From a virus, in IMG/VR virus record IMGVR_UViG_3300028920_000037, positions 76,496 through 140,495 of that record: a stretch of 64,000 bases of DNA. The stretch is one strand, 5' to 3'. The notes beneath the pieces were generated by a model. It ran no database searches, was not told the DNA's origin, and worked only from the letters and a program-made list of their open reading frames with translations. The position numbers and the translations under genes are program-made. Positions 3,125 to 34,074 of this stretch are shown piece after piece (within the stretch, counting starts at the first letter, position 1; each line of letters begins with the position of its first letter).

Positions 3125-3347
3125 ACGTGCCGTTGCAGGTGAGTTCGACGGGAAGCCCATTGACGAGCTCCTTGAGGCCATAGACGATGAGATTGACAAA
3201 TGGCACTCGCCTGAACACGATGACGATGATTCTAAACTTCATGAGTTCCTTGGCATGTCGTGGGAAGAGTACAAGTTCTTTGTAGAAAAGCCAACATACT
3301 TCATGAGTTCCTTGGTATGTCGTGGGAAGAGTACGGGTTCTTTGTAG
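3111..3347 (+). CDS. Hypothetical protein; C-terminus altered by tandem duplication
   Basis: 'IDKWH...LHEFLGMSWEEY'. Confidence 0.6.
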   Translation: MNIIERAVAGEFDGKPIDELLEAIDDEIDKWHSPEHDDDDSKLHEFLGMSWEEYKFFVEKPTYFMSSLVCRGKSTGSL

Positions 3348-3359
3348 AAAAGCCAACAT
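3236..3359. repeat. 62-bp tandem duplication (2 copies, 3 mismatches)
   Basis: acttcatgagttccttgg(c/t)atgtcgtgggaagagtac(aa/gg)gttctttgtagaaaagccaacat at 3236-3297 and 3298-3359. Confidence 0.95.
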
Positions 3360-3375
3360 CTAAAGAGGTTCAGCA

Positions 3376-3690
3376 ATGATTGAAAGCGACTTCTACGAAC
3401 AGAGTGTCAAGAACAAGGAAAAGTTCCCACAGAATGCAATGTACATCGCCCTTGTTTTTAAGCAGGGATCTCAACACGTTCCAGCGTATGATCGCCACGA
3501 TCCTCCTGAAGGCACGTACTGTCCAACGGAAGAGTGCGACGCGTATGTCTTTGGAGACAAGGAAACGCTCGACATGTTTGCCATGCGAGCGATGCACCTC
3601 AACATGAAGTACGTCATGTTTGAGCTAGGAAGCCAGCTTACAACGCATGTTACAGTCGACGTCAAACCGAAGATGGAGCCTACGCGATGA
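3376..3690 (+). CDS. Hypothetical protein
   Basis: SD-like gagg upstream; ATGA overlap with the ligase gene. Confidence 0.6.
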   Translation: MIESDFYEQSVKNKEKFPQNAMYIALVFKQGSQHVPAYDRHDPPEGTYCPTEECDAYVFGDKETLDMFAMRAMHLNMKYVMFELGSQLTTHVTVDVKPKMEPTR

Positions 3691-4487
3691 TTGTTAAGTA
3701 CCCGCGGACGCAACACGTCAGGGGCTCGCACCTTCAATACGGTGATGAGGACCTCGATGCGGTGTCGTTCGATGATCTGCGAGGCAAGCACCTCGTTGTC
3801 GAAGAAAAGATCGATGGAACAAACTCTGGAATCTCGTTCGAATCAGGACGACTCATGCTCCAGTCACGAGACCACTACCTACGTGGAGGCCCACGTGAAA
3901 AGCAGTTCGATCTTCTGAAGCAGTGGTCTAGCATGTGGCGGCAGGACCTGAACGACATCCTCGACGAGCGCTACGTGATGTACGGAGAGTGGATGTTCGC
4001 GAAGCACACATGTTTTTACGACATGCTTCCACACTACTTCATGGAGTTCGACGTTTGGGACAAGGAACGAGGCTTCTTTCTTGATACATCTTCTCGATAC
4101 GCGCTGTTGCGTAGCAGGAATCACGGTGTAAACATCGAACCTGTTCTTGTTGTCGCTGAAGGAATGTTCGGTTCGCTCGACGCCCTGAAGGAGCTGGTGT
4201 GTGATTCACACTTCAAGTCTCGGCAGTGGCGTGCTGACCTAACAAGGCAAGCGTTGCTCGCTGATGTCGATCCTGATGTTGCCAAATTTCACACCGACAT
4301 GAGTGACCTGATGGAAGGTCTCTACGTCAAGTGGGAAGAGGACGGCATCGTCAAGGGACGCTACAAGTTCGTACGTGAATCGTTTACGAACCACGTCCTC
4401 AGTCAGGACCAACACTGGCACGACAGGCCAATCATACAAAATTCGCTGCGTCCAGGTGCCTTTAACGCGATGTTTGGTACAATGTAG
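3687..4487 (+). CDS. ATP-dependent RNA ligase family protein
   Basis: KYPRTxH, motif I EEKIDG, YGEW, EFD, motif IV EGLYVK, motif V K. Confidence 0.88.
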   Translation: MIVKYPRTQHVRGSHLQYGDEDLDAVSFDDLRGKHLVVEEKIDGTNSGISFESGRLMLQSRDHYLRGGPREKQFDLLKQWSSMWRQDLNDILDERYVMYGEWMFAKHTCFYDMLPHYFMEFDVWDKERGFFLDTSSRYALLRSRNHGVNIEPVLVVAEGMFGSLDALKELVCDSHFKSRQWRADLTRQALLADVDPDVAKFHTDMSDLMEGLYVKWEEDGIVKGRYKFVRESFTNHVLSQDQHWHDRPIIQNSLRPGAFNAMFGTM

Positions 4488-4489
4488 CA

Positions 4490-5320
4490 ATGGCACGTTA
4501 CGCTTGGGCAACAGACGTACATCTAGATCACCTGAGAGACTCGTCTCAGGTGATTGCATTTGCAGAGATGATCGTCGCAACGAACTGCGACGGGGTCATC
4601 ATCTCAGGGGACATCTCGATCGCGAAGCATGTGACGTATCACCTTGCGGCGATCGAAAAGGTTCTTCAGAGGCCGATCTACTTCGTTCTTGGGAACCATG
4701 ACTACTATGGCGGGACGATCGAGGCAGTTCGCAAGGAGATGAGCAACCTTGCGAGGATCTCACCGTTCCTCAAGTACCTCCCATTGCAGAGCTACCACAT
4801 GCTCAACAGCTCGACGGCGATCGTCGGTCATGATTGTTGGTACGACGGGATCCTCGGCAACCCGCAGGGATCGAAGTTTCATCTGACCGATTGGAGCGCC
4901 ATCAGTGATTACAGGAACGACTACATGAATCCTCGAAAGTCCGAGGAAGAGAAGCGCAACCTGATCATCGGAACATCGAGGGACCTTGCGACCGAAGGCG
5001 TCATACACATCCAGAAGGGCATCAAGGACGCGTTCAGGTACGCTCGTAGGGTGATCGTCGTCAGCCACGTCCCGCCGTATGCTGAATCACACATCTACGA
5101 AGGCAAGATCGGCAACGACGATGCGATGCCGTGGTTCACATGCAAGCTGTTGGGCGACATGCTGTCTGATGCATCGAAGGCATTCCCAGACAGGAAGATT
5201 GTTTCGCTCTCGGGTCACACACATGGCCAGTACCAAGGCAAGAAGACAGACAACCTCGACGTCCTTGTTGGTGGTGCTAGGTACGGAAATCCAATGATCG
5301 AAACAATCATTGATATCTGA
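4490..5320 (+). CDS. Calcineurin-like metallophosphoesterase
   Basis: DVH, SGD, GNHD, SHVPP, GHTH. Confidence 0.92.
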   Translation: MARYAWATDVHLDHLRDSSQVIAFAEMIVATNCDGVIISGDISIAKHVTYHLAAIEKVLQRPIYFVLGNHDYYGGTIEAVRKEMSNLARISPFLKYLPLQSYHMLNSSTAIVGHDCWYDGILGNPQGSKFHLTDWSAISDYRNDYMNPRKSEEEKRNLIIGTSRDLATEGVIHIQKGIKDAFRYARRVIVVSHVPPYAESHIYEGKIGNDDAMPWFTCKLLGDMLSDASKAFPDRKIVSLSGHTHGQYQGKKTDNLDVLVGGARYGNPMIETIIDI

Positions 5321-6099
5321 TGACTGACGAGATTATCAGCGTCGATGGAGGCTGGCTTATCAAAGCAGATGCGGCGGTCCAACAGACCGTCTGGGACGTG
5401 CTCGACCTCGTCGGTCAGAATAGGTGGATGATCTACACAGATCCTCCTTACGGCAGCATCGTCAAGGAGGGCTGGGACGTCAAACTTCAGGGTGAGGAAC
5501 ACGGTGAGTGGATGCTCAACTGGACGAACATGTGGGCGCACCACCTCAATGAAGGAGCTGCGTTCTACGTTTGGGGAGGCGTGGGAAAGCACTTGAATAG
5601 GTCGTTCTTCTACTACGCTGCGAAGGTCGAGCACCGCACACAGCTCAAGATCCAGAACGTGATCACCTGGAAGAAGCGTCGAGGCATAGGGACGGCCTAC
5701 AATTATCTCTTCACGCGTGAGGAGTTGCTCTTTATGCTCAAGGAAGGCAAAAACGTGCAGCCTCTCGTGTTCAACGTGCCACTGCTAGATGAGCTCCGCG
5801 GCTATGCGGGTTACAACAACAAGTACCCAGCCAAGAGCCCGTACAAGAGGCGATCGAACGTTTGGACAGACGTCACCGAAATCCTTCGTGGTAAGAAACA
5901 CCCTGCACAGAAACCCGTTCGTCTCGCGGAGATCGCGATCGAGACATCATCCCATAGGAAGGACGTCGTTGTTGACCTTTTCGCTGGTTCGGGTTCTACG
6001 GGTGTCGCCGCTCACCGCTTAGGTCGCGATTTCGTCCTTGTAGAGAACGATGACGCTACGTTTGAAGAACTCAAGCGAACCTTCTCTTGTAAAGCGTAA
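5320..6099 (+). CDS. DNA amino-methyltransferase (N6A/N4C, beta class)
   Basis: DPPY precedes HPAQKP and DLFAGSGST. Confidence 0.92.
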   Translation: MTDEIISVDGGWLIKADAAVQQTVWDVLDLVGQNRWMIYTDPPYGSIVKEGWDVKLQGEEHGEWMLNWTNMWAHHLNEGAAFYVWGGVGKHLNRSFFYYAAKVEHRTQLKIQNVITWKKRRGIGTAYNYLFTREELLFMLKEGKNVQPLVFNVPLLDELRGYAGYNNKYPAKSPYKRRSNVWTDVTEILRGKKHPAQKPVRLAEIAIETSSHRKDVVVDLFAGSGSTGVAAHRLGRDFVLVENDDATFEELKRTFSCKA

Positions 6100-10865: not shown

Positions 10866-11393
10866 ATGGAACACGACGAGGAACCGATCAACGCACTGTG
10901 TAGGACGGCAAACATGGTCGATGTGTTTGCTGTTCTGATCTACAAGCACGACCCGATGTCGCTCCAGTCTCCCGATCCACTCGAGTATGAATCTGAAGCG
11001 TTATCGATCACCGCACGGTTCATTGAGTCGGGCGTGCACGCTGCAAACGATGACGTTGCTGTGCCTGCTGCAGTCGAGATCGTAAGGAACGCGTTTATCT
11101 TCTGGTTTGAAGACGATGATGCAGCACTCAGCGCTCGTGCAAAGGGAGCGGACTACGGTCCGCTCGCAAAGGAGCTTGTTGAAGCGCTTCGCACAGAATT
11201 TGTGGAGGAGTTTGCAGAGCTCGATGAAGAATCGCCCACTGGCGTGCAGGCAGAGTTTGCTGCCGCTGTTGGCTTGAACGTTGAGTTTCCGCTGAGCGAA
11301 CGTACAACGCCCGGAACGCCTCGTGCCAAGGTCGTTGCAGAGGATAACATGGATCTTGATGGTCCACCAATCATCATCAGGGAGAAAAAGTGA
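10866..11393 (+). CDS. Hypothetical protein
   Basis: 'HDPMSL...EYESEA'; directly behind the promoter. Confidence 0.7.
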   Translation: MEHDEEPINALCRTANMVDVFAVLIYKHDPMSLQSPDPLEYESEALSITARFIESGVHAANDDVAVPAAVEIVRNAFIFWFEDDDAALSARAKGADYGPLAKELVEALRTEFVEEFAELDEESPTGVQAEFAAAVGLNVEFPLSERTTPGTPRAKVVAEDNMDLDGPPIIIREKK

Positions 11394-12367
11394 AGAACGT
11401 TCTCATCACCGGTGCCGCAGGGTTCCTAGGTAGTCACCTTGCCCAAAGGTTCATCAACAACGGAGACTTCGTCATAGGAGTCGACAACTTTTCGACGGCA
11501 CTCGGCGTAGATGCAATTCACTTCACTGCGCTTCAGGTGCAGAAGCACTTTGAGTTCTATAGGATGGACATCCGTGATCTTTTAAAGATCGGCACCCTCA
11601 TCGCAAGGTTCAAGCCGTCGCTCATCCTGAACTTTGCGTGTCCAGCATCACCACCAAGGTACCAGGCTGAACCGATCCAAACCTTGATGACGAGCGTTCA
11701 GGGACTAAACAACGTGCTTTCGGCCGTCAGGCTGGCCTGTATCAGGCCCACGATCATCCACGCGTCGACCAGCGAGGTCTATGGAGACCCAGAGATGTCT
11801 CCACAACCTGAGACGTACTTCGGTCGCGTGAACTCGTATGGACCGCGTAGCTGCTACGATGAGGGCAAGCGTGCTGCAGAGGCACTGTGTTTCGACTATG
11901 CGAACCTGGGTATGGATATCAGGCCGGTCCGCATCTTCAACACCTATGGTCCTCACATGGACCCCGATGACGGCCGCGTCGTCAGCAATTTCATCTGCCA
12001 GATGCTTCGCGACGAACCGATGACAATCTACGGCGACGGTGAGCAGACGCGTTCGTTTTGCTACGTTGACGACCTCGTAGAAGGGATCTATCGTGTCAGT
12101 GAGCTTCCTGTCGGAGTATTGAACGGACCGATCAACCTGGGGAATCCAAACGAGTTCACGATCAAGGAACTCGCGTTCAAGGTTGCAAAGGCACTTGGCA
12201 AGAAGCCTCAGATCACGTTTGACGCGTTTCCCATCAACGACCCGCTTCAGCGCAAGCCTGACATCACGCTTGCGAAACAATTTCTCAATGGGTGGGGACC
12301 AAAGGTCCAGCTCGACGATGGACTTCCTCCGACGATTGAGTGGTTTAAGAATCTTCTAGAGAAGTGA
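11390..12367 (+). CDS. UDP-glucuronate decarboxylase (UDP-xylose synthase)-like SDR
   Basis: GAAGFLG, ACPASP, STSEVYGDP, RSCYDEGKR, RIFNTYGP, DGRVVSNF, QTRSFCYV. Confidence 0.9.
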   Translation: MKNVLITGAAGFLGSHLAQRFINNGDFVIGVDNFSTALGVDAIHFTALQVQKHFEFYRMDIRDLLKIGTLIARFKPSLILNFACPASPPRYQAEPIQTLMTSVQGLNNVLSAVRLACIRPTIIHASTSEVYGDPEMSPQPETYFGRVNSYGPRSCYDEGKRAAEALCFDYANLGMDIRPVRIFNTYGPHMDPDDGRVVSNFICQMLRDEPMTIYGDGEQTRSFCYVDDLVEGIYRVSELPVGVLNGPINLGNPNEFTIKELAFKVAKALGKKPQITFDAFPINDPLQRKPDITLAKQFLNGWGPKVQLDDGLPPTIEWFKNLLEK

Positions 12368-13213: not shown

Positions 13214-13558
13214 ATGTTTGTTCCAATCCTAAGCACAGAAGAAGCACTAGTTCGGATTGCGTTGTTCTGGATGAAAATGGATAACTTGGGTCTGTGTCGA
13301 CCTTACAACCATGTAGCTCAGCTTTGTGTTGAATCCGCGCTGGCTCGTGGTGATCAAAAAAGTGCGGAAACCTTGGTTGTTGATAACCAGCCAAGATGCA
13401 ATGTTAAGCAGATTTCTAGGTTTGTCCCTGGAAGACACTACTATGCGCTTGATCGTAAGTTTTTAACCTACGATTTGGCTGTGACGTATTTACGAGATCG
13501 TGGATATACAGTTCATCCTGAGGTGTTTGAGTACAGAATCCTTAGAGAAGGAGATTGA
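13214..13558 (+). CDS. Hypothetical protein (AT-rich)
   Basis: ORF with gagga SD. Confidence 0.55.
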   Translation: MFVPILSTEEALVRIALFWMKMDNLGLCRPYNHVAQLCVESALARGDQKSAETLVVDNQPRCNVKQISRFVPGRHYYALDRKFLTYDLAVTYLRDRGYTVHPEVFEYRILREGD

Positions 13559-13604
13559 TTTGGATGCTTACGGGATAAGCAAGGAAGAACGAACATGGCA
13601 ATGT

Positions 13605-13627
13605 CAGGGGACCTTCTTGGTCCCCTG
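13605..13627. other. GC-rich intergenic hairpin
   Basis: caggggacc-ttctt-ggtcccctg, perfect 9-bp stem, no U-tract. Confidence 0.6.
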
Positions 13628-13821
13628 CGTCGTATGCAGGCGATGATGCAGTGACGTATAATCAAGCTATGGTACACAGATACCTACGGACGACGTTCAG
13701 GATAGATTGACACTTGAAAAGTTTAGGAAGCTTGAAGAATTTGCTTGTCAGTTGTGAACATCCGCGTCATCTACGGTTTGTCAATTCATATTTCTCCAGG
13801 AACACTTTCAAAACTTGTTAG

Positions 13822-14256
13822 GTGCAGATGATATCAAACGAAAAAGAACCTCCTCACACCCTTCGGGCGTGCGAGAACCATCCAACAGTACAGAAGATCA
13901 ACAAGCTCTGTGAAGTCGCTCAAGAGCTCGGTGTCTACGTTCAGTTCTTTGGGCACCGTACGTTTGTTACTGACAAAGAATTTCCTGGTCGCCTTTACGA
14001 TATCAGCGACATTGGGAATTCAGACGAAGCGATCAGCGATTTCCCACCTCAGCTTGACTACAAGCTTACGTTTGAGAATCCAAAGTGGACGAACTGGAAC
14101 AATGAAAATAACGCTCGCCGCGAAAAAGAACGTAGACAGGCTGAGGCTGAGGAGCGACGCGTTCGCGAGGAAGAAGAACGTCAAAAGGCACGAGCTCTCG
14201 AAGAGCGTGAGCGGCAAGAACTCGCTCGTCTGAAGGAGAAGTATAGAGATGAGTAG
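13822..14256 (+). CDS. Hypothetical protein with charged coiled-coil tail
   Basis: E/R-rich C-terminus. Confidence 0.65.
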   Translation: MQMISNEKEPPHTLRACENHPTVQKINKLCEVAQELGVYVQFFGHRTFVTDKEFPGRLYDISDIGNSDEAISDFPPQLDYKLTFENPKWTNWNNENNARREKERRQAEAEERRVREEEERQKARALEERERQELARLKEKYRDE

Positions 14257-14746
14257 CATGAAGCACAAGTTCAGGTTTCCTGTCGGTGACTGGTCGGGTG
14301 ACGGTCATGGTAAGTGTGAATGGTTTCAAGTTCGAAGCAACCAACCTGTCGAGAAATGGCGTGAGGCGTACTTTGCATCATTGATCAAATTCAATGAACA
14401 CGACATCGCACCTGATAGTCACCACAATGGCAGGAAGGATAGAGGCTGGCCTCTGCACAAGATGCGTGAGCTCGTTGGTTTCAAATTTCCAAATACCGAT
14501 TATGACTGGCAGTATGACCAGCAAAGGGGAGAAAAGATCGAAGTCATACAAGATATTCCAAGGGTTGGATTTCCGGATCCGAAGGACGCCGTAGGGTACA
14601 CGCTCGCGTTCTGCCAGGCGTCTGATTCGTCGCTGAAGTTCGAGATCATTGAAAAAGAAACTGAGATGTTTCAGTTCTACGGTTTCGACGAGCAGGAAAG
14701 GCACATCGGTCACATCGGTTACGAAATCTTCATGGATGGTTGGTGA
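14249..14746 (+). CDS. Hypothetical protein
   Basis: 'GDWSGDGHG' start, 'IGY' end. Confidence 0.7.
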   Translation: MSSMKHKFRFPVGDWSGDGHGKCEWFQVRSNQPVEKWREAYFASLIKFNEHDIAPDSHHNGRKDRGWPLHKMRELVGFKFPNTDYDWQYDQQRGEKIEVIQDIPRVGFPDPKDAVGYTLAFCQASDSSLKFEIIEKETEMFQFYGFDEQERHIGHIGYEIFMDGW

Positions 14747-19252: not shown

Positions 19253-19912
19253 TTGATGATCATACCGAGTGGAAAGAAGCACGTTGTCTGGGCACGTATA
19301 GCAAAGACGGGTTCTATGTCAACAGAAAGAACGCTCACTGCATTGGGTGTGTTTATGCCACTGCGAAACGTGCTTCGTCGCCGAGAGGCGTACAAACCAA
19401 ACAAGCACATCCTTGTCGTTGATGACCTTGGAAAGCTAGCTGACGTCGGCGTGAACGTTGACGATTGCTTCATCTTTACGATCGTTCGATCGCCTTACTC
19501 ACGTGCGATGTCAGCGTGGTGTGGACACACCTTCTTCAAGGAAAAGAACAGGGACAACTTTGCCGACTGCATCAGGAACCCTCCCCAGCGTCCAGACAAG
19601 GGCTACAGAGAGCTTGGGAACAAGAAGGAAAAGGCTATCGAGGGCGCATGGAGACATTTCACAAAAACGATGTCGCAGTCGACGTCAATAGACGGTGCCT
19701 TACGCGTTGACAGGATCATCAAGCTCGAGGACTACAAGAACGGGCTGACTGCGGTGCTCGAAGAGCTAGGATTCAAGAAGATCAAGTTCTTCAAGGAGAA
19801 CAAGAGTCGCTTTCGCAAGAAGCGTGACCTGAAGCCGGAAGAGATCAGGCTCATCAATGCAAACTATTCTGAAGACTTCGACAATTTCAAATACGAAAAG
19901 AAAGAGGGCTGA
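19253..19912 (+). CDS. Sulfotransferase family 2-like protein
   Basis: RIAKTGSMS (5'-PAPS-binding-like), FTIVRSPYSRAMSAW, terminal YSEDF..FKY. Confidence 0.78.
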   Translation: MMIIPSGKKHVVWARIAKTGSMSTERTLTALGVFMPLRNVLRRREAYKPNKHILVVDDLGKLADVGVNVDDCFIFTIVRSPYSRAMSAWCGHTFFKEKNRDNFADCIRNPPQRPDKGYRELGNKKEKAIEGAWRHFTKTMSQSTSIDGALRVDRIIKLEDYKNGLTAVLEELGFKKIKFFKENKSRFRKKRDLKPEEIRLINANYSEDFDNFKYEKKEG

Positions 19913-24758: not shown

Positions 24759-25316
24759 ATGGAACAAATGCCAAAGACACGTCAACACATCATCTGCTTC
24801 GTCGGTCCTGATATGACCGGCAAGACAAACATCTCTCGTGAGCTTTCGCGTAGGACGAGCATCCCGCGGTTCAAGGCGTCATCCGAACACATGACGTTCA
24901 CCGATGAACAGGATCGTTTCCTTACTCAGCTTCGCGTTGCGGACGTCAGGCAGCTCGACCTCCTGCAGCAGGTCGGATTTTCGATGATCATGGACCGTGG
25001 TTGGCCGTGTGAATACGTGTATGCGAAGTTCTTCGATAGGACAACTGACATCGAACAGCTTCGTTCGAACGATAGGAGCTACGCAGCGCTCGGAGCACAG
25101 GTCGTCTTCTGTTATCACGATGATTATAATGGATTCCGTGACGATCTCAATCCAAAAATCGGTCCCGCTGAACTGAGGCGACTACACGACCTGTATGAAG
25201 AATTCTTTGAGCTAACTAGGTGTCCAGTAGTGCGGCTATGTGTGGATGACCTGAACCTCGATCGTCAGATGCGCGATCTAAGGGATGGGCTTCACATCGA
25301 ACTTGTAAGGAAGTGA
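24759..25316 (+). CDS. Thymidylate/dNMP kinase-like P-loop protein
   Basis: FVGPDMTGKT, MDRGW..EYVY. Confidence 0.8.
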   Translation: MEQMPKTRQHIICFVGPDMTGKTNISRELSRRTSIPRFKASSEHMTFTDEQDRFLTQLRVADVRQLDLLQQVGFSMIMDRGWPCEYVYAKFFDRTTDIEQLRSNDRSYAALGAQVVFCYHDDYNGFRDDLNPKIGPAELRRLHDLYEEFFELTRCPVVRLCVDDLNLDRQMRDLRDGLHIELVRK

Positions 25317-25678
25317 TCATGTCAGAAAGAGTGATTCACTGGAGCAACTGGGCGTCTCAGCCGTGCATACAGATCGCGTGTACAGGTGAGACGTTTCATC
25401 CTTGGGGGTGCGACAGCACGTTGCCGAAGGATGTCTTCAATGCTGATTTGAAGTTTCATCCTGAAATTCTCTATGCATTCGATGAGTCCCTCGTGACGTG
25501 CAACAAGTGCAAGAAGATCGATGGCTTTCAAGAGGGGCTCGATCGCGTCCTTGCGTACAGGCAGAAGGTCAGGGAGTCCGGGTTGACCGAACGTGAATAC
25601 GCAGAGCGCGAAACACGTAGGACACTCAAAATGCTGCGTGAGAAAGGAAGACTTGTACATGATGTTCTAGGAGGGTAG
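25313..25678 (+). CDS. Hypothetical protein
   Basis: Coupled ORF; VTCNKC. Confidence 0.55.
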   Translation: MIMSERVIHWSNWASQPCIQIACTGETFHPWGCDSTLPKDVFNADLKFHPEILYAFDESLVTCNKCKKIDGFQEGLDRVLAYRQKVRESGLTEREYAERETRRTLKMLREKGRLVHDVLGG

Positions 25679-25688
25679 GTTTTCATGC

Positions 25689-26239
25689 ATGGAAGTCTAC
25701 TTTTCGCGTGACGTCGAGGCAGACGGGCCGATCCCTGGTCCAAATTCAATGCTGTCGCTTGGATGTGCGGCGTTCAAGGACGACAGGCTGCAGAATACAT
25801 TCAGCGTCAACCTCGAGTTTCTCGACGGGGCAACGCCAGACGAACACACGACGGAGGAATTCTGGGACAGGAATAAATCGGCGTACGCCGCAACGAGGAC
25901 AATCTCAAACGCCCCAGCACTGCGATGTTGATGTTTGTGAAGTGGGTAGAGTCGTTCAACGGGAGACCCGTGTTTGTAGGTTACCCGGCGACGTATGATT
26001 TCATGTTTGTCTACTGGTACCTGATGCGTTTCGCAGGCAGGAGCCCGTTCTCGTTCAGCGGTCTGGACATCAAGACGATGGCTATGGTGATGCTAAAGAA
26101 GGAGTTTCGGGCATCTACAAAGCGAAACATGCCGAAGCGCTGGTTTTCAAGGTCGCCTCATACGCACGTCGCTGTCGATGATGCAATCGAGCAGGGTGAG
26201 ATGTTCTGCAACATGAGACAGGAGCTGTTTGGACGATGA
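25689..26239 (+). pseudogene. DEDDh 3'-5' exonuclease (Rv2179c-like) interrupted by a 1-nt frameshift near 25900
   Basis: DVEADGP in ORF 25689-25931; YDF and HVAVDDA in ORF 25925-26239; one added nt joins the frames. Confidence 0.75.
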
Positions 26240-26442
26240 ACGACTTAGATGTTGTTATCACTGTTCGTGCAGAAGGACATGGTAATACATTTAAGATCGC
26301 AAAAATCCTTGAAGAAGTGGGCGGACTTACTGTATACACGGTGCTAAACACGACACATACGATCTTTGGGCACTGCGATAAGTCAGTGTTTGTCTTGCTG
26401 TCCGCCCACCCGAGCGTTGAGCGAATCGAAGAGAATGAGTAG
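26236..26442 (+). CDS. Hypothetical protein
   Basis: ATGA coupling. Confidence 0.5.
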
Positions 26443-26598
26443 CTACTGTGATCCAGGCGCAGACAGAGCGGTTCTTTTGGAGATGAAGTTCGGCCAGACT
26501 TCGGTACGTTTTCGAAAAAACGTGTTGAGGATCTATGCTGGATGGTGGGTCATCTCTACGCTGTGTGAGATCAACGATGCAGTATCACGAGTACTGTT

Positions 26599-26823
26599 TT
26601 AGTCGTCGGACTTCTTTTCATCCTCTGCCTGAGGGGCGATCAGGATCGTGTCAGTCGGTCCTTGGATCCATGCTATGTTGTCGTTTGTTTCGGCAACGAC
26701 CATGCCATGCGTTTCATGAAAGATCGCTCGGATGACAGTACAAATTACGTCGATGTCGTCGCTTTCGATCGTGACGACGTCTGGCACCTTCTTAAGCAGG
26801 TTGTACTTCATCCTTACTTTCAT
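26599..26823 (-). CDS. Hypothetical protein
   Basis: TACTTA on the - strand at 26832-26837 upstream of ATG 26823. Confidence 0.55.
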   Translation of the reverse strand: MKVRMKYNLLKKVPDVVTIESDDIDVICTVIRAIFHETHGMVVAETNDNIAWIQGPTDTILIAPQAEDEKKSDD

Positions 26824-26860
26824 CTCAATCATAAGTAAGCAACAACGTTAGGCAAACAAC

Positions 26861-27226
26861 ATGCGATTGACTGTACTGAAGAGTAAGATCCACGGCGCCA
26901 TTGTTACGGGAGCAAACCAAGAGTACATGGGGAGCATCTCGATCGATCCTGTTCTCATGGAGGGCGCAAACATCCTATCGAACGAGCAGGTACACGTCTG
27001 GAACGTCACAAACGGTGAGCGCATCATTACGTATGCGATTCCGGCGTCTGAACAGCAAGGTTCGATCTGCATCAACGGCGCAGCTGCACACCTGTTCTCG
27101 TCTGGCGACAAGGTGATCATCGCTACGTTCTGTGAGATGGACGCCTGGAAGGCGAACGAATACACACCTATCGTTTTAATCATGGATGGGCTGAACAGCA
27201 ACCGCGTTAAGGAGAAGCGTCAGTGA
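26861..27226 (+). CDS. panD: Aspartate 1-decarboxylase (pyruvoyl)
   Basis: LKSKIH, YMG|SISID self-cleavage site, NGERI.TY, GSICINGAAAH, GDKVII. Confidence 0.95.
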   Translation: MRLTVLKSKIHGAIVTGANQEYMGSISIDPVLMEGANILSNEQVHVWNVTNGERIITYAIPASEQQGSICINGAAAHLFSSGDKVIIATFCEMDAWKANEYTPIVLIMDGLNSNRVKEKRQ

Positions 27227-27468
27227 TGAATGTCTTTGAAGACGATGAAGAGCCTCACGACCGCGTTGCCGACGCCGTGTTCGAACTCATTGTACATGCG
27301 TCGAGAGATGGTGAAAATGTGTGGAAGCAGATGTGGTTGAAACTGACGCCGTCTGAGGTTAGAAACGTCATCGAAGATCCTGATGCGTACACAAAGATGA
27401 TCGAATCGCTCGCACCCAGGATCCACGACCAACTCGAGTCGATCGTGGACAAGATCGAGTACGTATGA
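27223..27468 (+). CDS. Hypothetical acidic protein
   Basis: Coupled ORF. Confidence 0.55.
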   Translation: MMNVFEDDEEPHDRVADAVFELIVHASRDGENVWKQMWLKLTPSEVRNVIEDPDAYTKMIESLAPRIHDQLESIVDKIEYV

Positions 27469-27649
27469 AACCAACAGACGAAAGAGGAAGCATGAAGAAG
27501 CTTCTGGCGCAATTTGTGTTGCAAACTGATATTGTTGTTGAAATCAAATCAATCAACAACTAAAATACGCAAGTGATGCAATATCGTTTGGAAGGACATC
27601 AACGTGCCATTTCCCAACGATTGAAATTGATCGTGGATTTCCATAGAAA

Positions 27650-28952
27650 CATGAAGAAATTACTGATACAAACACAATTAAGCAACTACGATACACAAGG
27701 TAAATTTATCCTTGAGTGCGATAGCGGGTACAACATGATGATGGGTAGAACTAGAGTTCTCCTTCAACAAGTTCCTGACTTGAAGGTCTTCATCACAGGT
27801 CCTCAGCTAAACCAATGTAGAACCTCGCCGTATGATCTCAACGCCGATCTGTTCAATGATTTTGGCAACAGGTTGAAGTACATCCCGCTGCTGCTGATCC
27901 CGAACGCCCTTGCTACGCGTTACGATTTTGTGTTCGAAGACATCGCACGAGCGTTGGACCTGGGCGAAGATGGGCATGAACCATTTACACACGTCTTCAT
28001 CAACGATCCGATGTTGTTGAGGAACTTTCAGGCCCTGTTCTTCCTCAAGGGAAAGTACAGACCGAAGTACATCGTCCATTCGCACTTCATCGACAATCCA
28101 GAGTGTCCGAAGTTCCCGACCGAGGCTTCGCTCTGGATGGGACAGATGGAAGCAGCGTTCAAGGCTGACTTCAACTTCTGGCAGTGCGAATCGTCGCTGC
28201 AGGTGTTCCTCAAATCTGCGATGAACTGGCTGTGTGAGGACCTGGTCGCTGTGATCAGGCACAAGTCACTTCCTTGGGACGATGGGTACAGCAGTGAGGA
28301 GATAAACTCTCCAATCAATATGAACAACGTCAGGTTTGATGTAAATGACCTAGCACGAAAGACGGTAGGCAAGACTGTCGTTTTCGTACCGAACAGGATC
28401 GGTGGTTTTGGTCGCAGCAGCGACTACACGAACTGTGGAAGGTTCATGTTTGAGACGGTACCTCGTGTGCGGAAGATGAGGGACGACTTCGTCGTCATCG
28501 CTGGAAATCCGAGCCAGAAGATCCTGAACCACGAGCTCGAGGAGCTATGTCCGGCGTTCCTCAACCTTGTTCCGGATGCATTGAACAGAGACGAGTACAA
28601 GTACGTTGCAAGGCACATTCAGGACATCAGTGTCGGACTCTACAACCAGGACAGCTACGGTGGCACGGCAGCTCGTGAGCTCTGCGACGTAGGAACGATC
28701 CCACTGTGGGTCGACAACTATGAGTACACCCAGATTGCGCTCCTTGCCGGTTTACCGAAGGACATGATGATCGCTCCTGACCTCTCCAATATGGATGAGA
28801 CGCTCGTGTTTATGCTTGACTGGATTTCTCAAGTCAAGCATGATGCTCCTGAAGAGATCAAAGGCTGGCATGATCGTCTTAGCGATGTTGTCTACAGGCG
28901 TTGTTCATACGAGGCGACATCCGACGAGGCGATCCGGCACATGGGTCTTTGA
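27650..28952 (+). CDS. Putative GT-B fold glycosyltransferase
   Basis: Two Rossmann-like halves; VFVPNRI, RDDFVVIAGNP, LNRDEY, DSYGGTAARE..GTIP; next to epimerase and TS-like genes. Confidence 0.6.
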
Positions 28953-28977
28953 ACACCGTGTGCGTGAGTTGTACAAT
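28949..28977 (+). promoter_or_regulatory. Sigma70-like promoter
   Basis: TTGAAC-17 nt-TACAAT, then 8 nt to ATG 28986. Confidence 0.7.
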
Positions 28978-28985
28978 ATTCATGT

Positions 28986-29945
28986 ATGTCAAAACGTGTC
29001 TTGATCACAGGTGGCGCGGGCTTCATCGGTAGCAACCTAGCCCGTCGCTGTGTTGATGAAGGATATAAGGTTGTCGTAGTCGATAACCTTTCAAATGGCC
29101 ATAGGGAGTTCCTGCCCTATGGTCTCGATGAGTTTTGGGAGGACGACTTCTCGGCGGAGTGGGTCCTTGGCGTCGTCTCATCGGGGGTGTTTGATACCAT
29201 TTTCCACGTCGCGGCTGTACCGCGTGTCAGCTACTCGGTCGAACACCCGATTGAGACGAACGAGACGAACGTATCGAAGACACTCGCTTTGATAGACGCT
29301 GCAAAAGAGAAGACGCGAAGGTTCATCTTTTCGTCCTCGTCAAGCGTCTACGGCGGAGCAGACGTGCTGCCGACGCCAGAGACCGAACCGTTCAACGCAA
29401 AATCACCTTACGCGTTGCAGAAGGTCATCATTGAGCAGTACCTGAAACTGTATCACGACATCTACGGGCTCGATAGCTGCAGCCTGCGCTACTTCAACGT
29501 CTTCGGACCGAACCAGCTAGGAGATTCTCCTTACGCGACTGCTGTAAGCGCGTGGTTGACGGCGATCTTCAAGGGAGGTGAATGCCGAAGTGATGGCAAC
29601 GGTGGGCAGTCAAGGGATATGTGCTATGTTGACAACGTTGTTGAAGCAAACATGCTTGCGATGAAGAAGTCAAGCTACCTCGGTGCAGAATCATACAACG
29701 TTGCGTGTGGCGACAGTACGACGAATAACGAGATCCTTGAACACCTCAAGGAACGCTTCGGTAACAAGGTCAAGGTCAAGAACGCACCGTGGCGACCCGG
29801 CGATGTCATGCACACCCAGGCTGACATCACAAAGATCCACAACGACCTTGGATACGATGTGAAGGTTAGGTTTTGGGACGGCCTCGACAGGACAATCGCG
29901 TGGTTCGAGGGTTCGAAGCTTGCAAAGCTTAACGGGAAGGTGTAG
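28986..29945 (+). CDS. NAD-dependent nucleotide-sugar 4-epimerase (GalE/WbpP-like)
   Basis: GGAGFIGS, SSSSVYG, SPYALQK, LRYFNVFGP, QSRD..YV.NV, RPGDV. Confidence 0.92.
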   Translation: MSKRVLITGGAGFIGSNLARRCVDEGYKVVVVDNLSNGHREFLPYGLDEFWEDDFSAEWVLGVVSSGVFDTIFHVAAVPRVSYSVEHPIETNETNVSKTLALIDAAKEKTRRFIFSSSSSVYGGADVLPTPETEPFNAKSPYALQKVIIEQYLKLYHDIYGLDSCSLRYFNVFGPNQLGDSPYATAVSAWLTAIFKGGECRSDGNGGQSRDMCYVDNVVEANMLAMKKSSYLGAESYNVACGDSTTNNEILEHLKERFGNKVKVKNAPWRPGDVMHTQADITKIHNDLGYDVKVRFWDGLDRTIAWFEGSKLAKLNGKV

Positions 29946-29954
29946 GTTGTAAGC

Positions 29955-30194
29955 ATGTCCGCTGAGCTGCTCTCCATGCTCGATGGCAAGAGAGGTACGT
30001 CTGTTTTGCTGTCAATGAACGTACACGGATACGCGTTCCTGACGCTCATGGAACCGATTGGACTCGATATGTCTCCGGGAGGAAGCATTTCGTATACGTT
30101 CGCTCCAGATGAGGACGGCCTGAGAAACGCTCGATCGTTTGTTGAATCGCTACAACAGTGGATCGAGCACATCGAGTTAACGGAAAAGAAATGA
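29955..30194 (+). CDS. Hypothetical protein
   Basis: TAGGTT then 6 nt to ATG. Confidence 0.5.
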   Translation: MSAELLSMLDGKRGTSVLLSMNVHGYAFLTLMEPIGLDMSPGGSISYTFAPDEDGLRNARSFVESLQQWIEHIELTEKK

Positions 30195-30400
30195 GCACAT
30201 ACGTGACAAGTGATGCGTGGCATCGTCTCTGCTGTGAGTTAGACCTTCGAAAAGCTGTCTTTGAAACGCTTGCAAACATTGGCAGCGAAATGAATTTTCA
30301 GCTTCCACCAGAAGAGTTACTAAAACTTGTGATGAAACGTTCGAAGGGAACATTGGATCCTGCGGTCGCAAAGACGTACATTGAAGGGCTTTACAAATGA
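30191..30400 (+). CDS. Hypothetical protein
   Basis: ATGA coupling on both sides. Confidence 0.5.
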   Translation: MSTYVTSDAWHRLCCELDLRKAVFETLANIGSEMNFQLPPEELLKLVMKRSKGTLDPAVAKTYIEGLYK

Positions 30401-31428
30401 CGTTGCACATATATGAAAACTTCACCGATGCATACCGTGGCCTTCTTGAGGACGTCTATTCTTCTCCTGAATTTGTTTGCGCGCCGCGCGCGCAAAAGAT
30501 AAAGGAAAAGCTCGGTGTTCGATTCGTGATTACGAATCCACTCGCCAGGCTTCCATTCATCAGACCCCGCGACTTTGCAGTCAACTACATTGTCGCTGAA
30601 GGTATCTGGTACTTCGCCGGTATTGAGCTCACAGAGTGGATCTCGTACTACAGCAAGTTCTGGGAAAAGATCAGCGATGACGGTAGGAACGCGAATTCTG
30701 CGTACGGCGCGAGGATATTCAAACCTCACAAACGAGCGGGAAAAGATCCAACAAACCAGCTTGATAGCTGGACACAGTGGGACTGGTGCATTAAGGAGCT
30801 GGTGAACGATAACGACTCGCGTAGGGCGGTCGTGCACATCAGGAACCCTCTCGATTCTCGGTACGCTGTGAAGGATGTTCCTTGTACCCTCACGTTGCAG
30901 TTTTTCCTGAGGGACGACAAGGTCCACCTCTGTGTGGCGATGCGATCGTCTGACCTTTGGTTGGGCATCGCAAATGACGTTCCGGCGTTCACGCTCTTTC
31001 AAGAGCTAATGGCGATCGACCTTGAAAAAAGGCTTCGTCGTCCAATCGACGTCGGCACGTACACCCACATCAGCAACTCACTGCACATCTACGAACGTAA
31101 CTTCAAGAAAGTTGAAGAGGTGATCGAGGAACCAGAATCCGAGCGCTCTGGGTCGATATCTATGCCCAAGATGCCGTCAGCCCCGCCGCTTGAAATGCTT
31201 CTCATAGCAGAACAGGACATTCGAGGTGCTACGTCTACCGAAGAGGTTGGACGTCATGTCGCTGTCTTCTCTGATCTGGCAGCGTTGCATGGGACCATCG
31301 AACGCTACTGGGTCGATTGGATCAAGGTGCTTGCAAGTCATCGCTGCGGCAAGCTCGACGACAAAGATGCTCAGAGGCGTTTTCTTGATGAAACATCATG
31401 GGAAGGCTACCACTTCTTCGACAGGTGA
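30397..31428 (+). CDS. Thymidylate synthase superfamily, dCMP hydroxymethylase-like
   Basis: NSAYG.RI, DSRRAV, KDVPCT (catalytic Cys), MRSSDLWLGIAND, SLHIYE; Asp at the specificity position. Confidence 0.85.
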   Translation: MTLHIYENFTDAYRGLLEDVYSSPEFVCAPRAQKIKEKLGVRFVITNPLARLPFIRPRDFAVNYIVAEGIWYFAGIELTEWISYYSKFWEKISDDGRNANSAYGARIFKPHKRAGKDPTNQLDSWTQWDWCIKELVNDNDSRRAVVHIRNPLDSRYAVKDVPCTLTLQFFLRDDKVHLCVAMRSSDLWLGIANDVPAFTLFQELMAIDLEKRLRRPIDVGTYTHISNSLHIYERNFKKVEEVIEEPESERSGSISMPKMPSAPPLEMLLIAEQDIRGATSTEEVGRHVAVFSDLAALHGTIERYWVDWIKVLASHRCGKLDDKDAQRRFLDETSWEGYHFFDR

Positions 31429-31431
31429 CAC

Positions 31432-32013
31432 ATGACATGCATCATTGGGCTTGAGTGCGACGGCGAGGTCTACGTTGGAACCGACAGTGCGTTGAGTGAC
31501 ACATGGACGATCTCGTCACTTGCGGCTCGTGAGAAGGTTTTCGTCAAGCACGACATGATCTTCGGAGTCTGTGGCTCGATGAGGTTGGCGCAGCTGCTAC
31601 ACCACGCCTTGGAGGTTCCAGAGCACGAGGAAGAAAAGGATGTCATGTCATACCTTGTTGTTGACTTTGTCGACTCTCTGAGGGAGATGCTCAAGGACAA
31701 GGGAACTCTGTACACGTCGGATGATGAAGGCAAAGTTGAGTACCTGCCGAACTCAGCGTTCATCCTTGGATACGGTGGCAAGGTCTATGTCGTTGATGAG
31801 GACATGCAGGTGTCTCGTTCGGTCGGTGGGTTCATGTGCGAAGGCTCGGGCAAGGAGGTCGCAACCGGAGCGATGCAGGTCCTAAAGGACAGGCACGACC
31901 TCACGCCCGAGGATAAGATCAGAAAGGCGCTCGAGGCGAGTGCCCTTCACACGTGCTATGTCCAAGGACCCTTCCATGTCATGAAACTGTCGGACGATGA
32001 CGATGACGACTGA
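31432..32013 (+). CDS. Ntn-hydrolase (HslV/proteasome beta-like) peptidase
   Basis: N-terminal Thr (MTCIIG), GTDS, KVF, EGSG.EVA.GA. Confidence 0.8.
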   Translation: MTCIIGLECDGEVYVGTDSALSDTWTISSLAAREKVFVKHDMIFGVCGSMRLAQLLHHALEVPEHEEEKDVMSYLVVDFVDSLREMLKDKGTLYTSDDEGKVEYLPNSAFILGYGGKVYVVDEDMQVSRSVGGFMCEGSGKEVATGAMQVLKDRHDLTPEDKIRKALEASALHTCYVQGPFHVMKLSDDDDDD

Positions 32014-32282: not shown

Positions 32283-32852
32283 ATGAATCCTGAGTTCATA
32301 ATTTATTGTGGCCCAATGTTTTCGACGAAGACCACTTCAATGTTCTTACGTCTAGAACGCTTTGAGCTCCAACATAGAGCCACACGGCTCTTCAAACCGA
32401 TCGGCGATGAACGGTATAGCACCGACGAGGTCGTTACGCACTCTGGCTGGAAACGTCCGGCAACAAGGGTCTCTAAGGGCCTTGACATCCTGAAGCAGAT
32501 CGAAGAGGACCCGCCGAGCATTGTTGCAGTCGATGAGGCGTTTATGATACAGGACGTCTACAAGGTCCTCCCGTGGTTGTTCAAGAACGGTGTGACGATT
32601 GTCGTCGCTAGTCTTGATCTTGCGTTCAACGGAAAGTCGTTCAAGGAGGTCGAAAAGATGCTGCCGTGGGCGACAGAGGTACACAAGTGTCCTGCGGTAT
32701 GTACTGTCTGTGGCGCAAATGCGTTTTATACGCATAGAAAGACGTCTGACGATGAAGACATCATCGTAGGGGGCGCTGAGATGTACGAACCTAGATGTTT
32801 TTCTCATCACCCTGTTATAAATGAGGGATTTGGAAATGTTTCTTCGCGTTGA
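32283..32852 (+). CDS. tdk: Thymidine kinase
   Basis: GPMFSTKTT, VDEAF, SLDL.F, CTVCG, GGAEMYEPRC. Confidence 0.93.
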   Translation: MNPEFIIYCGPMFSTKTTSMFLRLERFELQHRATRLFKPIGDERYSTDEVVTHSGWKRPATRVSKGLDILKQIEEDPPSIVAVDEAFMIQDVYKVLPWLFKNGVTIVVASLDLAFNGKSFKEVEKMLPWATEVHKCPAVCTVCGANAFYTHRKTSDDEDIIVGGAEMYEPRCFSHHPVINEGFGNVSSR

Positions 32853-34074
32853 AAAGAATGGTCGCAAAAAGAAGCATATTATCAAATGCGATAACTGTGG
32901 TATCGAAGTTGAACGTTACGCCGCACATGCAAAAGGCAATGTTCACTTTTGCTCTAGAAGATGTAGCAATGCGGCAAAACGAGCGTCGATTCTCGTAACA
33001 AAAGCGTGTGAAACTTGCGGAAAAGAATTTATAAGGATCCCATCACTTTCTGGTCGCTATTGTTCCAAATCATGCGCAATAAAGTCACGATACGTCAACA
33101 AGTCAACTTGGACAAAGGTTGCTTGTGACACGTGTGGGAAAACAATCGAAAAACGTAAGATCCACGTTGGCCAACGTTCATACTGTTCACGAGAGTGTTT
33201 GAGTATTGGGCATGCTAAGACTCACTCTTCACATAACGTTCGATGTAACAAGGCAAAGGGTATAAAACGTGGAATCTATTTAACACTTGATGGTCGTTCG
33301 ATCAAGTATGATTCTTCGTATGAACTTCGTCGTATGCGAGAATACGACTACATCATCGATGATGAACTTGAATCATGGGAACGATGTGATCTAATCGTAC
33401 CTTACATCGATGTGAACGGCAAAAAGAGAAGTTATAATCCAGATTTTTTGCTTCGATACACTGATGGTTCTGTTGTTATCGAAGAAGTTAAGGGGCGTTT
33501 AACAGACAATGATGTTTTGAAATTCAACGCGTTGATTTCGTATTGTGCACATCAAGGAGATAACGTACAGGCTAGGATGTTTTCAAATCCAGATTTTGAT
33601 GATATTGAGGTCAAAACAAGCGTGTACAAAAACGATTACGGTGTGTTTTCTAGGCCGACATTAGAGTACATCTTTATAAAGATGGCGCTTCTTCTCGCAG
33701 AACGTTCAACATGCCTTCGAAAGAAGGTAGGTGTTGTGTTTACAGATTCAGAGATGCGTCATGCGTACTGCGTTGGTTATAACGGAGATGAAAAGGGTGG
33801 CAAAAATCAATGTGAATCCCTTGATCCCGGGAAGTGTAACTGCATACACGCAGAAATTAACGCATTGACGAAGAATAATATTGACATTACAGGATGTACG
33901 TGTTTTGTCACCCTGGCACCATGTCCGGTTTGTGCTAAGGTTTTGATTAATCGTGGCGTCAAAAAAGTGATTTATCACGAAGCATATAGAAATTCGAGAG
34001 GATTACAACTGCTTCATCAGCGTGGTGTTGAAGTCGTAAAGTATGCTTCTTTAGAAACAACGTCTGGTTCCTAG
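32836..34074 (+). CDS. Fusion: Zn-finger repeats + TnsA-like PD-(D/E)xK endonuclease + dCMP deaminase
   Basis: Three CxxCG..(F/Y)CSxxC repeats; DSSYE..Y..YNPDF..EEVKG; RPT..RSTC..VG..GYNG..HAE.NA..PCPVC. Confidence 0.88.
   Translation: MFLRVEKNGRKKKHIIKCDNCGIEVERYAAHAKGNVHFCSRRCSNAAKRASILVTKACETCGKEFIRIPSLSGRYCSKSCAIKSRYVNKSTWTKVACDTCGKTIEKRKIHVGQRSYCSRECLSIGHAKTHSSHNVRCNKAKGIKRGIYLTLDGRSIKYDSSYELRRMREYDYIIDDELESWERCDLIVPYIDVNGKKRSYNPDFLLRYTDGSVVIEEVKGRLTDNDVLKFNALISYCAHQGDNVQARMFSNPDFDDIEVKTSVYKNDYGVFSRPTLEYIFIKMALLLAERSTCLRKKVGVVFTDSEMRHAYCVGYNGDEKGGKNQCESLDPGKCNCIHAEINALTKNNIDITGCTCFVTLAPCPVCAKVLINRGVKKVIYHEAYRNSRGLQLLHQRGVEVVKYASLETTSGS

Follow-up and report, generated by a model that had tools for sequence, protein, structure and literature searches.

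Results and discussion

The gene content of a 64,000-nucleotide stretch of virus DNA (the window) suggests that the phage it derives from carries glycosylated 5-hydroxymethylcytosine (5hmC) in its DNA. The window forms the last 64 kb of the 140,495-bp IMG/VR virus record IMGVR_UViG_3300028920_000037 (CheckV completeness ~39%), and the genes in question include a thymidylate synthase (TS)-fold enzyme and a glycosyltransferase-like protein with a GT-B fold. Coordinates are window positions unless prefixed with G000 (source record), Gxxx (related records) or Lxxx (related loci). An earlier reading of the letters alone (the original prediction) named five features, being the TS-fold enzyme, the transferase, a 4-epimerase, a nucleotide kinase and a UDP-glucuronate decarboxylase (UDP-xylose synthase, UXS), and we found all five where it had placed them.

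Glycosylated-5hmC DNA is the best explanation of the results, with a probability of roughly 0.6. The TS-fold enzyme (30397-31428) would convert dCMP to 5-hydroxymethyl-dCMP, with dTMP being supplied by ThyX and dCMP deaminase. The modified nucleotide would be phosphorylated and then incorporated into DNA by the DnaE-type polymerase of the phage, after which a GT4-like GT-B enzyme (27651-28952) would transfer a sugar from a UDP-sugar to the hydroxymethyl group in the DNA. The glycosylated DNA may thus shield the genome against restriction and CRISPR nucleases. As to the glycosylated, modified-dCMP DNA of the original prediction, the residue signature, the separate ThyX, the GT-B fold and the linkage of transferase and TS gene all agree with it; the proposed pentose pathway and kinase function are not supported.

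Sugar-coated hydroxymethylcytosine is a classic phage defence against restriction enzymes and CRISPR that, to our knowledge, has been studied almost only in T-even coliphages. The same T4-like logic would now be seen in uncultured giant phages that form a large clade, use a DnaE-type polymerase and have no cultured relative. An identical copy of the transferase protein is present on a 331-kb contig, which indicates that the source is a giant phage. Nearly all genes of the window are on the plus strand. Neither megablast of the region nor tblastn of the transferase gave a match to 50,697 phage records, and the identity of DnaE to any phage record is at most 27%. Judged by these sequence comparisons, a cultured close relative appears to be absent from the phage records compared.

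The TS-fold enzyme carries a dCMP hydroxymethylase signature

The open reading frame (ORF) at 30397-31428 (plus strand, 343 aa) is a predicted dCMP C5-hydroxymethylase on the basis of its Pfam match (Thymidylat_synt, PF00303, 1.7e-20), its PDB matches and its residue signature. The best PDB match is the CMP hydroxymethylase MilA (1.2e-38, residues 2-276), followed by T4 dCMP hydroxymethylase (4.4e-13); ordinary thymidylate synthases score lower. We aligned the enzyme with T4 gp42, RB69 gp48 and SPO1 gp29, which make 5-hydroxymethyl-dCMP, 5-hydroxy-dCMP and 5-hydroxymethyl-dUMP, respectively (the last being a dUMP enzyme). In ThyA numbering, position 177 is Asp in the TS-fold enzyme, T4 gp42 and RB69 gp48 and Asn in SPO1 gp29; position 143 is Asp in all except RB69 gp48 (Glu); and position 169 is Asp in all except RB69 gp48 (Asn). 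The residue at the ThyA Asn177 position is Asp194 of the phage enzyme and aligns with Asp179 of T4 and the Asp of MilA. Reading the DNA confirms the Asp codon (gac) that had been reported at 30976-30978: window 30937-30981 translates to A-M-R-S-S-D-L-W-L-G-I-A-N-D-V, of which it is the second Asp.

The signature extends beyond this single position. The catalytic Cys (ThyA Cys146) is Cys163, which is invariant in 41 homologues and aligns with T4 gp42, RB69 gp48 and SPO1 gp29. Asp143, Asp169 and Asp177 are retained in essentially all of the 120 closest homologues, so the Asp at 177 is no chance substitution, and the D-V-P-C motif (Asp at ThyA Leu143) is conserved in 119 of these 120. The substitution D169N, the proposed mark of 5-hydroxycytosine synthases, is absent: the residue is Asp186 in the TS-fold enzyme and is Asp in its close homologues, whereas RB69 gp48 has Asn in the same column. 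The deoxyribose-selecting positions correspond to Ser167 and Arg126 of ThyA (M-R-S-S-D and D-S-R-R, against M-R-A-N-D and D-S-K-R in MilA).

According to a 2026 paper (PMC13326640), N177D selects dCMP, L143D/E accompanies hydroxymethyl products with the acidic residue at ThyA Leu143 admitting water to the methylene intermediate, and D169N marks 5-hydroxycytosine synthases. The DNA of RB69 and DLP3 was shown there to contain arabosylated 5-hydroxycytosine rather than hydroxymethylcytosine, the TS homologues being flavin-binding D169N hydroxylases. Ser and Arg at the positions of MilA Ala176 and Lys133 select deoxyribose (PMC5175136). By alignment the phage protein thus has the full dCMP-hydroxymethylase signature of the T4 gp42 type, and its Asp169, taken with the rule of PMC13326640, argues for a hydroxymethylase. 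The predicted reaction is the formation of 5-hydroxymethyl-dCMP from dCMP and methylene-tetrahydrofolate. The dCMP-type reading put forward originally for this enzyme is supported by Asp143, Asp169, Asp177, Cys146 and the Ser167/Arg126 pair. The D169 versus N169 rule also gives a clear prediction for the phage DNA, namely 5hmC and not 5-hydroxycytosine. Homologues of the enzyme number more than 900 and occur in a large clade of uncultured giant phages.

The neighbouring transferase has a GT-B fold

The transferase (plus strand, 433 aa) has a gene-caller start at 27651 and ends at 28952; the open frame runs over 27573-28952. It has no family match in Pfam (E<=0.01), PHROG or NCBIfam, and no PDB match by sequence search. 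At least 397 homologues with more than 50% identity were found, mostly on large phage contigs. Its assignment as a GT4-like GT-B enzyme comes from the predicted structure. An AlphaFold2 model built with a homologue alignment (predicted local distance difference test, pLDDT, 95; predicted TM score 0.90) has a GT-B fold. Foldseek matches the model to MshA, sucrose-phosphate synthase (SPS) and LmbT at E ~1e-11, and VIA-align gives BshA (Z 28.6, root mean square deviation 3.4, 352 aligned), MshA (27.6), SPS 6kih (27.3) and PimA (26.4). The two Rossmann-like halves align with GT-B enzymes across residues 1-433, with a sequence identity to GT4 structures of just 8-14% and no Pfam GT1/GT4 match. The GT-B fold claimed originally for ORF 27650, for which a Foldseek comparison had been suggested, is thus found in the model.

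The same PDB folds (3mbo, 3c4q, 6kih, 2gej, 7qsg, 8ixp) are listed for proven and predicted phage DNA glycosyltransferases in Table 1 of PMC13326640. Such shared folds, seen here in a model, indicate the structural class of the transferase, not its acceptor. We predict that it glycosylates 5hmC in DNA, a DNA acceptor being suggested by gene linkage and by mutual exclusion with other enzymes (see below). T4 AGT and BGT are not among the 50 matches listed by Foldseek or VIA-align, by which a closer relation is neither shown nor excluded; the AGT cluster is a language-model neighbour at rank 26, which is a lead only. A sigma-70-like site is present just upstream of the gene (27538-27566). Promoter and terminator counts overall reach just about twice the shuffled expectation, and the site was not used as evidence. 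The family, with approximately 400 homologues in the clade and no profile in Pfam, PHROGs or NCBIfam, offers candidates for DNA-modifying enzymes such as those already employed as reagents in epigenomics and in the production of nuclease-resistant DNA.

One place beside the TS gene holds three alternatives

A profile scan of IMG/VR with a TS alignment yielded 80 loci, 68 of which have the same TS family (40-61% identity). A search with the single TS protein gave no loci, and the alignment-based scan was needed. Flanks were examined by tblastn and Pfam, and 26 related records were examined whole. The loci share a constant block of DnaE, the TS gene, the 4-epimerase, thymidine kinase and dCMP deaminase, with one variable place beside the TS gene. 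Type A is the transferase of the window (11 of the 68 loci and 7 of the 26 records). Type B is an unrelated glycosyltransferase-like family of 340-350 aa with a weak Glyco_trans_1_2 match (43 loci, 17 records), which in 18 loci is joined by a UDP-galactopyranose mutase; hhalign detects no relation between the type-A and type-B families (5%). Type D consists of a 588-aa carbamoyltransferase and a 218-aa protein (8 loci, 2 records). Two more loci, ending just past the TS gene, have the mutase, either alone or together with a fragment of the type-B gene, and 4 of the 68 have none of the three types.

No locus contains two types, and the types are exclusive across the 26 whole records as well. In each of the 11 related loci with type A, the transferase has the kinase on one side and the TS gene on the other. 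The three types are mixed among one another in a maximum-likelihood TS protein tree, whose well-supported branches require type A to have switched at least 4 times, type B at least 7 times and type D at least 3 times. Sister pairs of types A and B and of types A and D have 100% bootstrap support.

A carbamoyltransferase of the same architecture and size, located beside a TS homologue on modified-cytosine contigs, acted on 5-hydroxymethyldeoxycytidine and not on 5-methyldeoxycytidine or 5-hydroxymethyldeoxyuridine (PMC8670742). Given that a 5hmC-specific class of enzyme occupies the same place, the simplest reading is that the TS gene provides 5hmC, with the variable place encoding whatever is attached to the hydroxyl. 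The presence of exclusive, repeatedly swapped alternatives beside the TS gene thus supports both a 5hmC acceptor and a DNA-directed transferase. Three alternatives at one place also suggest that an arms race drives the turnover of what is attached to the hydroxymethyl group.

The relatives show some further variation. Type-D loci are L008/L030 (7584-9999, TS 50% identical) and seven others (L017, L021-L023, L040, L042 and L068), in which the Carbam_trans_N/C gene and the 218-aa protein replace the kinase and transferase. By our analysis their gene set fits the published 5-carbamoyloxymethylcytosine system. We considered the 218-aa protein as a short TS fold given its D-x-R-R and R-A-S-D motifs, which is unproven (hhalign just 16%, E 0.0016). 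Among type-B loci, L043 (11029-13230) and some 18 others combine the UDP-galactopyranose mutase (PF03275, 9e-80) with a 351-aa glycosyltransferase-like gene, the kinase and the epimerase; for these relatives the gene content predicts galactofuranose on the modified cytosine. Other type-B loci (L014 type) have a second short-chain dehydrogenase/reductase (SDR; 329 aa) and a 260-aa protein without assigned function instead of the mutase. In the closest relative (L007, on a 324-kb contig), kinase and transferase are separated by a gene for an Apyc1-like (Anti-Pycsar) metallo-beta-lactamase (3572-4414), which points to an anti-defence island in this part of the genome. The gene that immediately follows the TS gene in the window encodes an HslV-like peptidase family protein (31432-32013; PHROG 1040, 3e-19); among the relatives, only several of type A (L011, L025, L029, L031 and L036) have a homologue close to the TS gene.

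A separate route to dTMP and the nucleotide kinase

A check for a separate thyA or thyX had been proposed, and ThyX is indeed present at G000:71380-72228, approximately 4 kb upstream of the window. Consequently, the TS-fold enzyme is not required for dTMP. A canonical Tmk adjoins ThyX, followed by an MT-A70 methylase and a 123-aa dUTPase_2/PRA-PH-like protein. The last is an all-alpha NTP pyrophosphatase homologue (G000:C1:73779-74150, 2.3 kb before the window) that is present in all 26 records, usually beside UXS and DnaE. This domain family was reported to co-occur with TS on modified-cytosine contigs (PMC8670742), and the protein is a candidate dCTPase/dUTPase that would exclude dC from DNA. 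MazG (PF03819) was not found in the 140-kb record. The ORF at 13214-14746 is not the dUTPase_2-like gene; neither this ORF nor the small ones at 25313-26602 and 29955-30194 gave a Pfam match at a threshold as loose as E<=1.

Downstream of the TS gene are a thymidine kinase (32283-32852, plus strand; Pfam TK, 9.6e-41), which is syntenic in relatives, and a dCMP deaminase in a 417-aa frame (32821-34074, plus strand), which would supply dUMP to ThyX. The deaminase domain covers residues ~278-411 of this ORF (Pfam dCMP_cyt_deam_1, 1.2e-16; PHROG 174 dCMP deaminase, 1.6e-39), which also matches HNH PHROG 1271; its first ~250 residues match HNH and TnsA/DUF1064-like endonucleases. Relatives have the deaminase alone (148-154 aa), so in the window a homing-endonuclease gene seems to be fused in frame or inserted just upstream.

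The kinase at 24759-25316 (plus strand; longest ORF from TTG at 24720, relatives ~175 aa) is a P-loop protein of the Tmk/YorR/dNK type (Pfam AAA_28, 27.8 bits; PHROG 761 thymidylate kinase), in which G-P-D-x2-G-K-T is invariant across the family. Its AlphaFold2 model (pLDDT 93) matches YorR (3kb2), thymidylate kinases (4s35) and dCK or other deoxynucleoside kinases in Foldseek. YorR 3kb2 and thymidylate kinase 4s35 are the matches reported for DLP3 gp78 and RB69 gp45 (PMC13326640), and hhalign of the kinase profile (35 homologues) with RB69 gp45 gives 96.9% (E 2e-10, 139 columns). In RB69, gp45 is annotated as a nucleotide kinase and flanks arabinosyltransferase 1 and the TS homologue, whereas the enzyme shown to phosphorylate the modified nucleotide is a different, gp1-type dNMP kinase (PMC13326640). 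Across the related loci the kinase accompanies transferase types A and B and never type D; it belongs to the glycosylating versions of the module. This argues against the hydroxymethyl-dCMP kinase that had been proposed: the protein is a homologue of gp45 and not of the gp1 type, and it is missing from type D, which would need the same phosphorylation. Its role may instead be tied to glycosylation.

Between kinase and transferase the window also encodes an aspartate 1-decarboxylase, PanD (26861-27226, plus strand; Asp_decarbox, 3.3e-42; TIGR00223, 119 bits with a cut-off of 106). PanD occurs in just 2 of the 26 related records and in none of the 80 loci, and is thus outside the conserved module. 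In the closest relative it is located instead in a distant cluster with GT1 and sugar-dehydrogenase genes (G001, ~312.6 kb). It may provide beta-alanine or a glycan substituent, both of which we raise as questions.

Sugar-nucleotide genes

Upstream of the TS gene lies a GalE-family NDP-sugar 4-epimerase of 319 aa (28986-29945, plus strand; Pfam Epimerase, 3e-51). Its PDB relatives are 6dnt (5e-56), WbgU and WbpP, all UDP-hexose or UDP-N-acetylhexosamine (HexNAc) 4-epimerases; the score to the NCBIfam GalE equivalog TIGR01179 is 175 bits, under the 262-bit cut-off. It adjoins the TS gene in almost all related loci regardless of the transferase type, including type D, in which there is no DNA glycosyltransferase. 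Given its presence with all three types we regard it as a backbone gene, which may or may not supply a sugar donor for DNA modification.

The ORF at 11390-12367 (plus strand, 325 aa) matches human UXS1 in PDB (1.6e-78, 267 bits, residues 2-324; the next family at 1.6e-37), and its T-S-E and Y-x3-K catalytic motifs are identical to human UXS1 in the alignment. No NCBIfam equivalog passes. By sequence it is a clear UXS homologue, as originally proposed; a link to DNA modification is unproven. Five of the 7 type-A records have UXS, as do one of the 17 type-B records (G017) and one of the 2 type-D records (the complete genome G009). Type-A record G007 lacks it even though the sequence covers the usual UXS site beside the dUTPase_2-like gene and DnaE. 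A UDP-glucose dehydrogenase (UDPG_MGDP family) was not found in the 140-kb record, which represents ~39% of the genome. The relatives have a separate, distant glycan cluster, the counterpart of which in this phage falls outside the 140-kb record (G001 308-323 kb, G002 ~20 kb, G009 11-13 kb, G013 52-53 kb, G015 154-158 kb) containing several PF00534 (GT1) glycosyltransferases and a short (321-324 aa) NDP-sugar dehydrogenase without the C-terminal domain; in G002 a GDP-fucose-synthase-like gene is included as well.

Comparison with known systems

The system is predicted to work like the glucosyl-5hmC system of T4 and is built like the 5-hydroxycytosine clusters of RB69, DLP3 and Rhizobium phage RL38J1 (Lee et al., NAR 2026, PMC13326640). 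With T4 it shares a TS-fold enzyme having Asp177, Asp143 and Asp169, a GT-B transferase near the TS-fold gene (in T4 beta-gt directly follows gene 42), a separate dTMP synthase, dCMP deaminase and thymidine kinase, and the presumed logic in which the nucleotide pool is modified first and the DNA glycosylated after. However, it differs from T4 in every protein family but the TS fold. The phage enzyme has ~29% identity with gp42 and a C-terminus that extends 100 residues further, the transferase has no Pfam match to AGT or BGT, the polymerase is of the DnaE type whereas that of T4 belongs to family B, and dTMP would be made by ThyX rather than the ThyA-type Td. Furthermore, no homologue of a gp1-type kinase or of gp56 (dCTPase) was recognised in the phage, which does encode sugar-nucleotide enzymes (epimerase and UXS).

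The trio of a Tmk-like kinase, a GT4-like GT-B enzyme and a MilA-like TS protein is common to RB69, DLP3, RL38J1 and our phage, including a gp45-homologous kinase and transferase matches to 3mbo, 3c4q, 6kih, 2gej, 7qsg and 8ixp. The difference is in the defining residue: D169N is absent from the phage enzyme, so the predicted acceptor is a hydroxymethyl rather than a hydroxyl group. Also, the phage has an SDR route (UXS and 4-epimerase) and lacks the route of arabinose-5-phosphate isomerase, kinase-uridylyltransferase and phosphatase, and the transferases have no sequence similarity.

The contigs with 5hmC carbamoyltransferases found by MetaGPA (Yang et al., eLife 2021, PMC8670742) resemble the type-D relatives, which have a 588-aa Carbam_trans_N/C gene beside the TS gene, likened to the published enzyme by architecture and size, as well as the PRA-PH/dUTPase_2-like protein and dCMP deaminase of the reported domain set. 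The window, in contrast, has a glycosyltransferase at the place of the carbamoyltransferase. MilA, the CMP 5-hydroxymethylase of mildiomycin biosynthesis (PDB 5jnh, 5b6d), is the best solved match and has Asp at the equivalents of 143, 169 and 177, but its Ala176 and Lys133 favour ribose whereas the phage has Ser and Arg as in deoxyribose-specific enzymes; it is also part of an antibiotic cluster and not of a phage replication block. Shewanella phage Thanatos (PMC12838424) likewise encodes an enzyme of UDP-xylose metabolism, in this case a UDP-xylose pyrophosphorylase instead of a UXS decarboxylase. The cytosine pentose is that of Thanatos and is not evidenced here, and the Thanatos TS homologue is a D169N hydroxylase (PMC13326640) whereas the present enzyme has Asp169.

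Alternative explanations

Several observations weigh against glycosylated-5hmC DNA. All of its chemistry is predicted and read from genes, and the D169 rule rests on the panel of one paper. The TS-fold enzyme is ~29% identical to T4 gp42, RB69 gp48 and SPO1 gp29 alike and thus represents a separate lineage. For the transferase, the lack of a Pfam family means that it matches neither T4 AGT (PF11440) nor BGT (PF09198), hhalign detects no relation to RB69 gp47 (0.8%), and the best viral structural neighbours are Arthrobacter phage glycosyltransferases without assigned acceptor. The UXS and epimerase could serve the distant GT1 glycan cluster instead, and a dCTPase is not proven, the dUTPase_2/PRA-PH-like protein being the only candidate present. 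One alternative is an acceptor other than DNA. The phage would still make a C5-modified cytosine, with the GT-B enzyme acting on a virion protein, an envelope glycan or a small molecule and with UXS and epimerase feeding that reaction. The actinophage neighbours fit such a role, as do the closest solved folds (which act on small molecules or lipids), the other glycan genes in these phages, and the persistence of epimerase and UXS in relatives without any DNA transferase. Yet the transferase gene invariably occupies the kinase-TS interval of the replication block, and it is exclusive, both within loci and genome-wide, with two enzymes of the same place, one of which belongs to a 5hmC-specific class. 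Repeated swaps beside the TS gene are hard to explain for an unrelated acceptor, and we consider this alternative improbable.

A different question is which sugar would be transferred to 5hmC. In the pentose route proposed originally, UDP-glucuronate from host or phage would be converted to UDP-xylose by the phage UXS and optionally to UDP-L-arabinose by the epimerase, and the GT-B enzyme would then attach the pentose to DNA. In favour of this route, the match to UXS is strong with intact motifs, the gene is part of the same replication and nucleotide block upstream of DnaE, and pentoses on phage cytosine have precedents in RB69/DLP3 (arabinose) and Thanatos. UXS is also enriched in type-A records (5 of 7, compared with 2 of the 19 remaining records), although this enrichment is confounded by relatedness, and it is found both in the complete type-D genome G009, which lacks a DNA glycosyltransferase, and in type-B loci L033, L053, L072 and L073, whereas type-A record G007 is without it at its covered usual place. 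The short NDP-sugar dehydrogenase of the closest relatives could be counted in favour as well, but it has no C-terminal domain and sits in the distant GT1 cluster. Moreover, the epimerase is a backbone gene, and its pairing with the UDP-galactopyranose mutase (Glf) in type B points to a UDP-Glc/Gal function and to galactose. The probability of a hexose (galactose, glucose or HexNAc) made available via the conserved 4-epimerase is no lower than that of xylose or L-arabinose via UXS. Taken together, the pentose route is doubtful as an explanation of the gene set, and a pentose as such would be a rather unlikely sugar. Equally tentative is the notion of an undescribed base, 5hmC O-linked to xylose or L-arabinose via the phage UXS (with or without the 4-epimerase) by a new family of DNA glycosyltransferases, as one of at least three swapped cassettes beside a constant hydroxymethylase gene. 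The remaining alternatives concern the TS-fold enzyme. It might be a flavin-dependent dCMP 5-hydroxylase of the type of RB69 gp48, DLP3 gp80 and RL38J1 gp216, leading to O-glycosylated 5-hydroxycytosine. The cluster make-up is indeed the same (gp45-like kinase, GT4-like transferase, MilA-like TS homologue), and those hydroxylases, too, have MilA as their top match among solved structures. The absence of D169N from the enzyme and all its close homologues, where RB69 gp48 has Asn, and the pairing of this TS family in relatives with a carbamoyltransferase class specific for the hydroxymethyl base make a hydroxylase very unlikely. Most improbable of all, the enzyme might methylate dCMP as in Xp12, giving 5-methylcytosine, or be a dTMP synthase of the ordinary kind, the transferase being unrelated. 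N177D alone turns ThyA into a dCMP methylase, as cited in PMC8670742, but position 143 is Asp as in hydroxymethylases instead of a bulky hydrophobic residue, and the partners at the adjacent place all require a hydroxyl acceptor; a dTMP synthase is opposed by the separate ThyX.

Other genes in the window

A Sulfotransfer_2 gene (2e-12) is located at 19253-19912, in the gap between the split dnaE pieces, and has no homologue in the 80 related loci. At the start of the window we observed an RNA-repair-like set of a polynucleotide kinase-phosphatase (1935-2876), an RNA ligase (3687-4487), a metallophosphatase (4490-5320) and an RlaP-like nucleotidyltransferase, which spans window 1935-6099 and G000:C1:75860-76870. 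An N6/N4 DNA methylase follows at 5320-6099, and the MT-A70 methylase mentioned above is found upstream of the window, near ThyX.

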